This document shows positions 3,249 to 9,259 of a stretch of DNA of 64,000 bases, in pieces. The position numbers and the translations under genes were made by a program. Numbering within the stretch: position 1 is the stretch's first letter; each line of letters starts with the position of its first letter. The DNA is from Nitrospirota bacterium (lineage in GTDB: Bacteria > Nitrospirota > Thermodesulfovibrionia > Thermodesulfovibrionales > UBA9159), in assembly GCA_963699545.1 (NCBI GenBank), contig CAVOUE010000003.1:704001-768000 (forward strand), read 5' to 3'. The notes under the pieces are model-generated. The model had not been told where the DNA came from. It saw only the letters and a list, made by a program, of their open reading frames with translations, and searched no databases.

Positions 3249-3292
3249 AAAAAGGCCGGGCATGCCGGGATATCTCCTTCGGCAGCTCGGCC
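3249..3292 (-). terminator. Intrinsic terminator overlapping the 3' half of riboswitch P3 (copy 1)
   Basis: GGCCGAGCUGCCG...CGGCAUGCCCGGCC followed by UUUUU; mutually exclusive with the aptamer fold. Confidence 0.75.
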
Positions 3293-3357
3293 ATCTTCTC
3301 TAAGACCCGCCGCTTTCCGTCTCCCGATTACTCGGGATTTGGCTTTGTCGGGATACC
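3270..3357 (-). ncRNA. c-di-GMP-I (GEMM-I) riboswitch, G20 type
   Basis: Minus strand: CGAC-AAAG-CC-AAA-UCCCGA-GUAA-UCGGGA-GACGG-AAAG-CGGC-GGGUCUU-AGAG-AAGAUGGCC-GA-GCUGC-C-GAA. GNRA-capped P2, AAAG junction and C92 equivalent are present. The G20 equivalent is at 3343. Confidence 0.88.
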
Positions 3358-4644: not shown

Positions 4645-4800
4645 TGCAATCCCCCTTTCTCAGTCGTAAGGGTTCTTAAGTGGAATAATCCCCCAAACCT
4701 CTCTTTCTTCTCACCCCCTTCCACACCAAACAAAAAGGCCGGGCATGCCGGAATATCTCCTTCGGCAGCTCGGCCGTCTTCTCTAAGACCCGCCGCTTTC
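4588..4800. repeat. About 210-bp direct repeat (partner 3104-3317)
   Basis: Near-identical signal-peptide coding sequence, 5' UTR, terminator and riboswitch P3. Confidence 0.95.
4732..4775 (-). terminator. Intrinsic terminator overlapping riboswitch P3 (copy 2)
   Basis: Same hairpin and U5 tract as copy 1. Confidence 0.75.
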
Positions 4801-4838
4801 TGTCCCCTCCTCACGGGGGGTTTGGTTTTATCGGGAGA
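4753..4838 (-). ncRNA. GEMM-I riboswitch, A20 variant (candidate 3'3'-cGAMP sensor, GEMM-Ib-like)
   Basis: Minus strand: CCGAU-AAAA-CC-AAA-CCCCCC-GUGA-GGAGGG-GACAG-AAAG-CGGCGGGUCUUAGAGAAGACGGCCGAGCUGCCGAA. Position 20 equivalent (4826) is A. Two C-A mismatches in P2. Confidence 0.82.
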
Positions 4839-6803: not shown

Positions 6804-6965
6804 TCATTCCGACGATTTGCCGAATTCCCTCATCTCGATCAATACGGCACCGCATTTCCCGCACTTGGGACTCTGTTGGAGCATTAATGCCTTCAGCTTG
6901 TTCTGAACGCCACAGGACAGACAGCGGATAAGCATTTCTTCGTTTTCCTTATCGTTCTCTTCCAT
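6804..6965 (-). CDS. 53-aa Zn-ribbon protein (resembles the TrxC N-terminal zinc finger)
   Basis: Hand translation MEENDKENEEMLIRCLSCGVQNKLKALMLQQSPKCGKCGAVLIEMREFGKSSE; CxxC-x16-CxxC; AGGA upstream. Confidence 0.7.
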   Translation of the reverse strand: MEENDKENEEMLIRCLSCGVQNKLKALMLQQSPKCGKCGAVLIEMREFGKSSE

Positions 6966-7050
6966 ATCCTATCCGAAGGGCCGTTTTCTTCCATTCTAGC
7001 ACGTTTGTTCTTTCCTGCATTCACAGGACCTGATGTGTTATAATTTTCTC

Positions 7051-7461
7051 ATGAAACGAATCCTTCTGGTCGCGCTGCTTCTTATCCCTGCCCTTGCATA
7101 TGCGGCTCCCTCCATTAAGTTTGTGGAGGAAACCCATGACTTCGGAAAGGTCCGGGAAGGGGAGAAGGTAGAGTATACCTTTGAAGTCGCCAATTCTGGC
7201 ACAGATGAACTGCGCATAGAGAGGGTAAGGGCCTCCTGAGGATGTACCGCGGTGATGGCTAGTTCAAGCCATCTGAAGCCCGGAGAAAAAGGGAGCATAA
7301 CCGCGACCCTCGACACCCGGAACAGGGCAGGGTTCATCGTGAAGACGATTGAGGTGGTGAGCAATGATCCTGACACGCCAAAGGTGGTCCTCACGCTCAA
7401 AGCTGAAGTGACGGCAAAAGACAACGCGGCATCTCCGCAGCGAGCCCCGGATAAAAGATAA
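7051..7461 (+). CDS. DUF1573-family secreted Ig-like protein, probable selenoprotein (Sec at TGA 7237-7239)
   Basis: Two in-frame ORFs join across a TGA to give RAS-U-GCTA, matching the family SCGCT motif. HDFGKV and LKPGEKGSI motifs flank it. Confidence 0.85.
7254..7273 (+). promoter_or_regulatory. Candidate bacterial SECIS hairpin
   Basis: GAUGGCU-AGUUCA-AGCCAUC: perfect 7-bp stem, G at loop position 2, starting 14 nt after the UGA. Confidence 0.7.
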
Positions 7462-8244: not shown

Positions 8245-8622
8245 ATGGCTGGCGAGTATAAGTCCTTTGGGGATTTTTTCAAAAGCCTTCGGAAAAAGAA
8301 GAGAATAACGCTGAGAGAATTCTGTATAAAGGCGTCGGCTGATCCGGCGAATATCAGCCGTCTTGAACGTGGGGCGATGCCCGCGCCGCAGGATACTGAA
8401 ATACTTGAACGATACGCAAAAGCTCTTGGCATTGAATTGGGAACCGATGACTGGTATGCCTTTTTCGATTTGGCCGCTGCAGACAGGGGAATCATCCCCA
8501 AAGATCTGATGAAGGATGGTGAAGTCGTAAGAATGCTCCCCGCATTCTTCAGAACATTACGAGGTCAGAAGCCGACAGTGGCGGAGATGAGCAAACTGGC
8601 GGAAAAGATAAGAAAGAGTTAG
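8245..8622 (+). CDS. XRE-family HTH regulator
   Basis: FGDFFKSLR...TLREF...ISRLERG. Confidence 0.9.
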   Translation: MAGEYKSFGDFFKSLRKKKRITLREFCIKASADPANISRLERGAMPAPQDTEILERYAKALGIELGTDDWYAFFDLAAADRGIIPKDLMKDGEVVRMLPAFFRTLRGQKPTVAEMSKLAEKIRKS

Positions 8623-8629
8623 TCGCGTA

Positions 8630-9259
8630 ATGATGGACCCGAGGGAGTTTAAGGCCCCTTATATAACAATTGAAGACATCAGGAAGGCGGTCGATGATTT
8701 TCGTAAACGGTATTGGCCCCGAGATGCAATCCCGGTTGATATTCTTGAAATTGTTGAGTTTGAACTGGGCTTGGAAATACGGACGATCTTCAACTTGAGA
8801 GAAGCCGGCGATGTGGATGCTCTTTTACTTGGTGATCTTAAGACGATCGCTGTTGACCAGAACGACTTCCTGAATGACCGCGCTCAAAACAGGCTCAGAT
8901 TTTCGATAGCGCATGAAATTGGTCATCTCATACTTCACAGAGACACTTTTTCGAAGATTCAATACTCCTCGATTAACGAATGGATTGCCTTCTTTCAGGA
9001 AATACCGGAGGATGAATATACATGGATTGAACAACATGCTTATGAATTTGCCGGACGGCTTCTTGTCCCGAGAGAAAAACTGATAGAGAAATTGAATGAT
9101 GCAGTTGCCTTGGCAAGGAGTTCAGGCTTTGATGCATGGGATGCCTCTGGCGACTCGACTCGCCAATTCGTAGCGCATGGTATTGCCAGGCATTTCGAAG
9201 TATCCGACCAGGTTATCGAAAAAAGGTTAATCAGAGAAAATCTCTGGCCACCGGCCTGA
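8630..9259 (+). CDS. ImmA/IrrE-family metallopeptidase
   Basis: RLRFSIAHEIGH (HExxH), E.HA.EFAGRLLVP, F.VS. Confidence 0.92.
   Translation: MMDPREFKAPYITIEDIRKAVDDFRKRYWPRDAIPVDILEIVEFELGLEIRTIFNLREAGDVDALLLGDLKTIAVDQNDFLNDRAQNRLRFSIAHEIGHLILHRDTFSKIQYSSINEWIAFFQEIPEDEYTWIEQHAYEFAGRLLVPREKLIEKLNDAVALARSSGFDAWDASGDSTRQFVAHGIARHFEVSDQVIEKRLIRENLWPPA

Follow-up and report, generated by a model that had tools for sequence, protein, structure and literature searches.

A UGA-containing DUF1573 gene from a Nitrospirota bacterium, a further member of a catalogued selenoprotein family from a poorly annotated clade

Introduction

The closest described relative of the gene reported here is OS_HP2, which Table 2 of a study of the Olavius symbiont metagenome lists as a new selenoprotein family (Zhang and Gladyshev 2007, PMC1976440). 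The table of the GOS study gives OS_HP2 with the domain pfam07610 and the motif UxC (Zhang and Gladyshev 2008, PMC2398784), and entries in reviews of 2022 and 2026 carry a 'DUF1573 domain-containing protein' with PF07610 and the motif UGC (PMC9312934, PMC13188914). The main text of the BSepDB paper (PMC13326102) makes no mention of DUF1573, and a full-text search of the literature for 'DUF1573' returned nothing on function.

Here we describe a gene that fits the definition given in this literature, in that a pfam07610 domain is combined with a predicted selenocysteine (Sec, U) in a U-G-C, and hence UxC, motif. It shares with OS_HP2, and with the corresponding NCBIfam model NF041425, the same Pfam domain, the placement of Sec at the first Cys of C-G-C and the existence of Cys homologues; like OS_HP2, it is predicted by computation only. 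It differs in belonging to a separate clade with Nitrospirota labels that falls under the cut-off of the model, and it differs from OS_HP2 as tabulated in these sources in that the same order also contains U-x-x-C variants, together with fusions to cytochrome c, SCO1/SenC and CarboxypepD_reg-like domains. The gene is thus a further member of a catalogued DUF1573 selenoprotein family, drawn from a poorly annotated clade, and it introduces no new principle.

Results

Reading frame and N terminus

The gene lies at 7051..7461 on the forward strand of the window, by which we mean the whole 64,000-nucleotide stretch of DNA that was analysed. When translated with read-through, it comprises 136 codons followed by a TAA stop. 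The single internal stop in this frame is the TGA at 7237-7239, which forms codon 63 and lies within the motif S-U-G-C-T (residues 62-66), exactly where homologues without a TGA have the first Cys of S-C-G-C-T. The initial annotation had described both this placement and the continuation of the open frame past the TGA, and our translation agrees with it on both points. The DUF1573 profile PF07610 matches the read-through product with 96 bits against a gathering threshold of 26.1, and the match runs from residue 22 to residue 120 and takes in the entire profile (positions 1-98 of 98), which means that the TGA lies inside one continuous domain. ORF calling with table 11, on the other hand, cuts the frame into two pieces, 7033..7239 and 7252..7461. 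The U-G-C motif itself (Sec63-Gly64-Cys65, 7237..7245) contains two columns, C63 (the position of U) and C65, that are invariant in a protein alignment of 37 sequences.

The N terminus resembles a Sec-type signal peptide, MKRILLVALLLIPALAYA (7051..7104), which we read by eye from the sequence and which would probably be cleaved after A-Y-A, leaving AP at the start of the mature chain. From this N terminus we infer that the protein is exported through the Sec pathway. With candidate ATG codons at both 7033 and 7051, and with no promoter-like site returned by a promoter scan upstream of the gene, the choice of start codon is ambiguous; the sole terminator-like site detected lies on the opposite, minus strand. 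The alternative ATG at 7033 has an AGGA upstream and would add six residues (MCYNFL). A TATAAT-like hexamer at 7039-7044 stops 6 nt short of the ATG at 7051, an arrangement that would suit a leaderless transcript. In most relatives, the start falls at the M-K-(K/R) position.

A hairpin downstream of the UGA

Bacterial SECIS elements are described by consensus ranges, and the G-U of their apical loop is recognised by SelB. Directly downstream of the TGA, we observe a SECIS-type element at 7247..7283 (+), which consists of a lower stem (7247-7253 paired with 7278-7283) and an apical hairpin (7254-7273). Folding of the RNA from 7237 to 7300 gives a perfect apical stem of 7 bp (7254-7260 with 7267-7273) that closes the loop AGUUCA at 7261-7266, with G at loop position 2 and with the first stem nucleotide exactly 14 nt past the TGA, as the initial annotation had claimed. 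The energy of this fold is unremarkable in comparison with shuffled sequences (z = -1.47, with 14 of 200 shuffles folding equally well), and a hairpin in a single sequence would not by itself count as evidence.

The evidence for the element comes instead from its relatives. In an alignment of 36 sequences covering 54 nt from the TGA onward, 81.7% of the cells of the seven stem pairs are paired; six of the seven pairs are altered on both sides, and 53 cells are doubly changed. Neither the observed covariation score nor the observed percentage paired was reached in any of 500 column shuffles. When the 3' arm is slid by 1-3 columns, pairing drops to 21-55%, and the slide of -1 corresponds to the true register of the remaining sequences, which have the 5-nt loop AGUUC. 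Within the loop, the alignment columns G26, T27 (the first U) and C29 are invariant over the 36 sequences, and T28 (the second U) is nearly so. The SECIS-like character proposed from the single sequence is therefore borne out by compensatory changes across the family.

The changes in the stem also alter the encoded peptide, which reads M-A-S-S-S-H, V-V-S-S-D-H or L-A-S-S-A-S, and in Cys homologues the same segment encodes an unrelated peptide (T-P-E-W-S-K...). As a consequence, the segment after U-G-C appears to be held by RNA structure rather than by the protein. After removal of identical 60-nt segments, a contiguous stem of at least 6 bp is found in 37 of 44 distinct U-type sequences as opposed to 8 of 36 distinct C-type sequences.

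The element resembles the fdhF-type bacterial SECIS in being a stem-loop inside the coding region just downstream of the UGA, in its conserved apical-loop G-U and in the position of the loop, which here begins 21 nt past the UGA. It differs in sequence, with a loop AGUUC(A/G) that is nearly fixed among the DUF1573 relatives, and in that the U-x-x-C relatives space the hairpin 3 nt further, which leaves it at the same place on the protein.

Selenocysteine and cysteine at the same column

To place residue 63 in its family context, we screened 61 genomes from this order, including the genome of origin, and found a match in 38 of them. Every match row of at least 55.9 bits contains a TGA (37 of 37), and none of the 12 weaker rows does. 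Over 41 loci of the order, whose best frames were aligned to the query, column 63 is U in 36, C in three, and T or S in two weak matches. The 36 TGA loci are 36-76% identical, and their frames are open on either side of the TGA. In the three Cys loci, the motif is S-C-G-C-T and the protein carries a fused cytochrome c. A second collection, of 44 loci from named genomes, has U in nine, C in 33, A in one and a missing column in one, and it overlaps with the same-order collection, so that the two sets of counts are not independent. All nine U loci of this second collection carry labels of Nitrospirota type (Nitrospirae, Nitrospiraceae, Dissulfurispiraceae), and the 33 C loci belong to Bacteroidota, with TGT or TGC as the codon. 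Alternation of Cys and TGA among homologues had been proposed initially as the way to check the Sec reading, and a column in which no homologue has TGA as a finding against it; the alternation is present, and TGA is by far the most frequent codon at this column within the order. In an uncultured Nitrospiraceae MAG (L076), the motif is A-G-N-T, with both Sec and Cys lost and with no TGA.

The same genome encodes a second DUF1573 paralogue (G000:C3:817357-817719; positions 1438-1800 of locus L014), which is approximately 60% identical to the protein described here. It has a TGA at the same column in the motif S-U-E-C-T, where Glu replaces Gly, and the corresponding hairpin after it has a stem of 8 bp and the loop GUUC.

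The Cys-type DUF1573 proteins of Bacteroidota (Chitinophaga, Pedobacter; L078-L111) share the domain and the position of the motif, are likewise predicted to be small exported proteins and are 29-49% identical over the best tblastn segment. They differ in having Cys for Sec and in the peptide that follows CGCT, where T-P-E-W-S-K-E-P and similar sequences replace the hairpin-encoding A-S-S-S-H, and they are without a conserved hairpin.

Selenocysteine machinery and the genetic code

The initial annotation had predicted selA, selB, selC and selD elsewhere in the genome. We found the first three: the gene for tRNA-Sec (selC) matches RF01852 with 72.9 bits (cut-off 47) and is called by ARAGORN as tRNA-SeC with anticodon tca, SelA scores 521.5 bits, and the winged-helix domain of SelB (SelB-wing_3) scores 73 bits. 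As a positive control, the alpha subunit of formate dehydrogenase (FdhA, 875.9 bits) contains one in-frame TGA, which indicates that the machinery is in use. For selD, neither TIGR00476 (best score 66.9 against a cut-off of 125) nor NF002098 has a match over its cut-off in this assembly. The assembly, of 13 contigs, has a completeness of 86.94%, and selD is present over the cut-off in 19 of 21 relatives, both genomes of the same genus among them; we thus read its absence as incompleteness of the assembly, though it is still a gap. Every selD copy in those relatives carries one TGA, so that SelD is itself a selenoprotein there.

A genome-wide reassignment of TGA to Trp or Gly was considered as well and rejected. 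TGA is the commonest ordinary stop in this genome, ending 603 of 1192 ORFs of at least 300 aa, and the homologous residue at the column is Cys.

Predicted fold

An AlphaFold2 model built from a 37-sequence alignment (mean pLDDT 92.1, pTM 0.79) shows an Ig-like sandwich, in keeping with the Ig-like protein that had been suspected at the outset. In the model, a helix (residues 2-14) precedes the sandwich, and the loop U63-G64-C65 sits between strands 54-61 and 66-70. The closest structure is 2qsv, an uncharacterised protein of Porphyromonas gingivalis, which resembles the model in fold (Foldseek E 1.6e-07, TM 0.68 on the query) and weakly in sequence (E 0.0035) and differs in that the sequence alignment has no Cys at the position of U-G-C. 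Next after 2qsv in the Foldseek results are the PapD-like domains of HYDIN, and the likeness to PapD-like/ASH domains (HYDIN, VesB, CEP192) is again one of fold. Such matches speak to the fold only, and no function is transferable from them.

Family models and protein databases

The best NCBIfam match of the protein is NF041425, 'OS_HP2 family (seleno)protein', with 82.6 bits against a curated cut-off of 100. The same model is the best NCBIfam match for all 38 relatives tested, at 45-93.8 bits, and 0 of 38 reach 100, so that under the curated rule these proteins form a sister clade rather than members of the family. Among predicted proteins with lengths of 74-238 residues, the best full-length match in the database is 37% identical. 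The sole close match is a fragment of 103 aa, which covers 46% of the query at 74% identity. That annotation pipelines would split the gene in two had been foreseen, and the presence of a close relative as a 103-aa fragment alone fits truncation of these genes by gene callers.

Domain fusions and gene neighbourhood

In nine loci (L028, L034-L037, L039-L041, L043), the U form of the DUF1573 domain is followed by a C-terminal c-type cytochrome (Cytochrome_CBB3, with two CxxCH motifs). Cys forms of this architecture also occur in the order (L047-L049), one of them in the genus to which the window belongs. A variant of the domain with the motif U-R-A-C stands C-terminal to an SCO1/SenC domain in two loci (L042, L046). 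Together with L050-L054, these loci make up the U-x-x-C variants (U-R-A-C, U-R-L-C, U-R-R-C and U-K-R-C), in which the SECIS element is shifted by 3 nt; other members of this set follow CarboxypepD_reg-like domains, as detected by Pfam in L052 and L053 and by similar sequence in L054. L052 has two tandem DUF1573 domains with one TGA in each. In the genome of origin, a search with one query found no separate protein homologous to the cytochrome c domain of the fusions, and an SCO1-like match is weak, at 24.8 bits.

The neighbours of the gene in the window encode a PMT_2 glycosyltransferase, a small zinc ribbon of Thioredoxin-2 type and an Smr protein. In the neighbourhoods of eight related loci of 5-8 kb, gene order is conserved only among near relatives and lends no support to a function: a UvrA-like gene together with ApbE lies upstream in four of the eight, in a fifth the UvrA-like gene stands by itself, and UbiA with a flavoprotein lies downstream in two. 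No copper genes adjoin the gene or the eight related loci scanned.

Several other features of the window are recorded here in their own right. The zinc ribbon is encoded by an ORF of 53 residues at 6804-6965 (-), which is read in the opposite direction, away from the DUF1573 gene; its match is to the zinc ribbon found at the N terminus of thioredoxin 2 (PF21352, 28.5 bits), and it has no thioredoxin domain. At 8245-9259 (+), an HTH gene of Cro/C1 type adjoins a gene for an M78/IrrE-type peptidase, a pairing that is typical of mobile-element or stress regulators. An Rfam search of the window returned no match to a SECIS family, its only hits being two aptamers of c-di-GMP-I type riboswitches, RF03167 (the GGC variant, 66.8 bits) at 3277-3352 (-) and, about 1.4 kb from it, RF01051 (50.5 bits) at 4761-4836 (-).

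Discussion

The UGA at 7237-7239 is very probably decoded as selenocysteine, which would yield one exported DUF1573 selenoprotein of the OS_HP2 kind with a redox or metal role for its U-x-C motif. The selenocysteine reading is supported by the conserved recoding signal, by the alternation of Sec and Cys in relatives, by the presence of the Sec machinery, selD excepted, and by the fold. SelB-GTP with Sec-tRNA(Sec) would bind the hairpin 14 nt downstream of the UGA and insert selenocysteine, so that the gene would give a single exported protein, some 118 residues long once mature, and not two fragments. The product would be an Ig-like beta-sandwich of PapD/ASH type with U-G-C in a surface loop.

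Two other accounts of the TGA can be set against decoding as selenocysteine. One is that the codon is a genuine stop, in a pseudogene or through an assembly or sequencing error, in which case a 62-68-residue N-terminal fragment or nothing at all would be made. The split ORFs from standard calling, the missing selD and a protein database in which a close relative is represented by no more than a short fragment would all agree with such an account. We nevertheless consider it extremely improbable, given that the TGA recurs at exactly this column in 36 loci of diverged sequence with open frames on both sides, and again in the paralogue, that the half of the gene beyond it retains the DUF1573 profile positions, and that the hairpin covaries; error or decay would not strike one codon again across a whole order. 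The other account, in which read-through does take place but inserts something other than Sec at least some of the time, such as Cys or Trp through near-cognate decoding or from a mischarged tRNA(Sec), is also very unlikely. It would gain if SelD were truly lacking from the organism, and Cys is evidently functional at this column in homologues. Yet tRNA-Sec, SelA and SelB are all retained in the genome and FdhA carries a TGA of its own, the occurrence of selD in nearly all relatives and the incompleteness of the assembly speak against a real loss, and a conserved hairpin of SelB type would be pointless for plain read-through.

As for the role of the selenoprotein, the Sec-x-Cys pair in the periplasm may cycle between selenenylsulfide and selenol-thiol as a redox couple, or may supply a pair of ligands for a soft metal such as Cu(I), handing electrons or metal to periplasmic partner proteins. 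A periplasmic role of this sort is suggested by relatives in which a c-type cytochrome or SCO1/SenC is joined to the same domain, and analogous CxC motifs with redox and copper functions are known in other proteins. Provided that the protein is real, a redox relay is a serious candidate, and we slightly prefer it because heme fusions are more frequent than fusions to SCO1/SenC; metal handling is conceivable too, and some other function would be rather unlikely. Given a real selenoprotein, the narrower proposal that U-x-C serves mainly as a soft-metal site of Cu(I) type, which would make the protein a metallochaperone of the periplasm and not a redox relay, seems doubtful. It draws on the U-R-A-C domains fused to SCO1/SenC, which has a copper-chaperone and thiol-reductase fold, and on the binding of Cu(I) by CxC motifs in known chaperones. 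Against it stand the lack of copper genes beside the gene and in the eight related loci scanned, the weakness of the SCO1-like match in the genome of origin and the fact that the commoner fusion partner among the loci seen, the c-type cytochrome, is an electron carrier.

By analogy with these fusions, we tentatively propose that the Sec-x-Cys loop could be a periplasmic relay, supplied with electrons by c-type hemes or with Cu(I) by SCO1-type chaperones, that hands on what it receives. On this view, the fused proteins would be the 'Rosetta stone' counterparts of an interaction in which the stand-alone protein and its U-E-C paralogue act in trans.

The chief worth of the finding lies in annotation. 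The gene is common to a whole order with Nitrospirota labels, and yet its full-length forms are absent from the predicted-protein collection that was searched. Since NF041425 does not reach this clade either, counts of the selenoproteome for these organisms are too low. If the proposed relay is real, it would represent a selenium-dependent hand-over of electrons or metal in the envelope of anaerobic Nitrospirota. The family has been on record since 2007, and its fusions to a cytochrome c domain and to SCO1/SenC offer a concrete and testable hypothesis of function.
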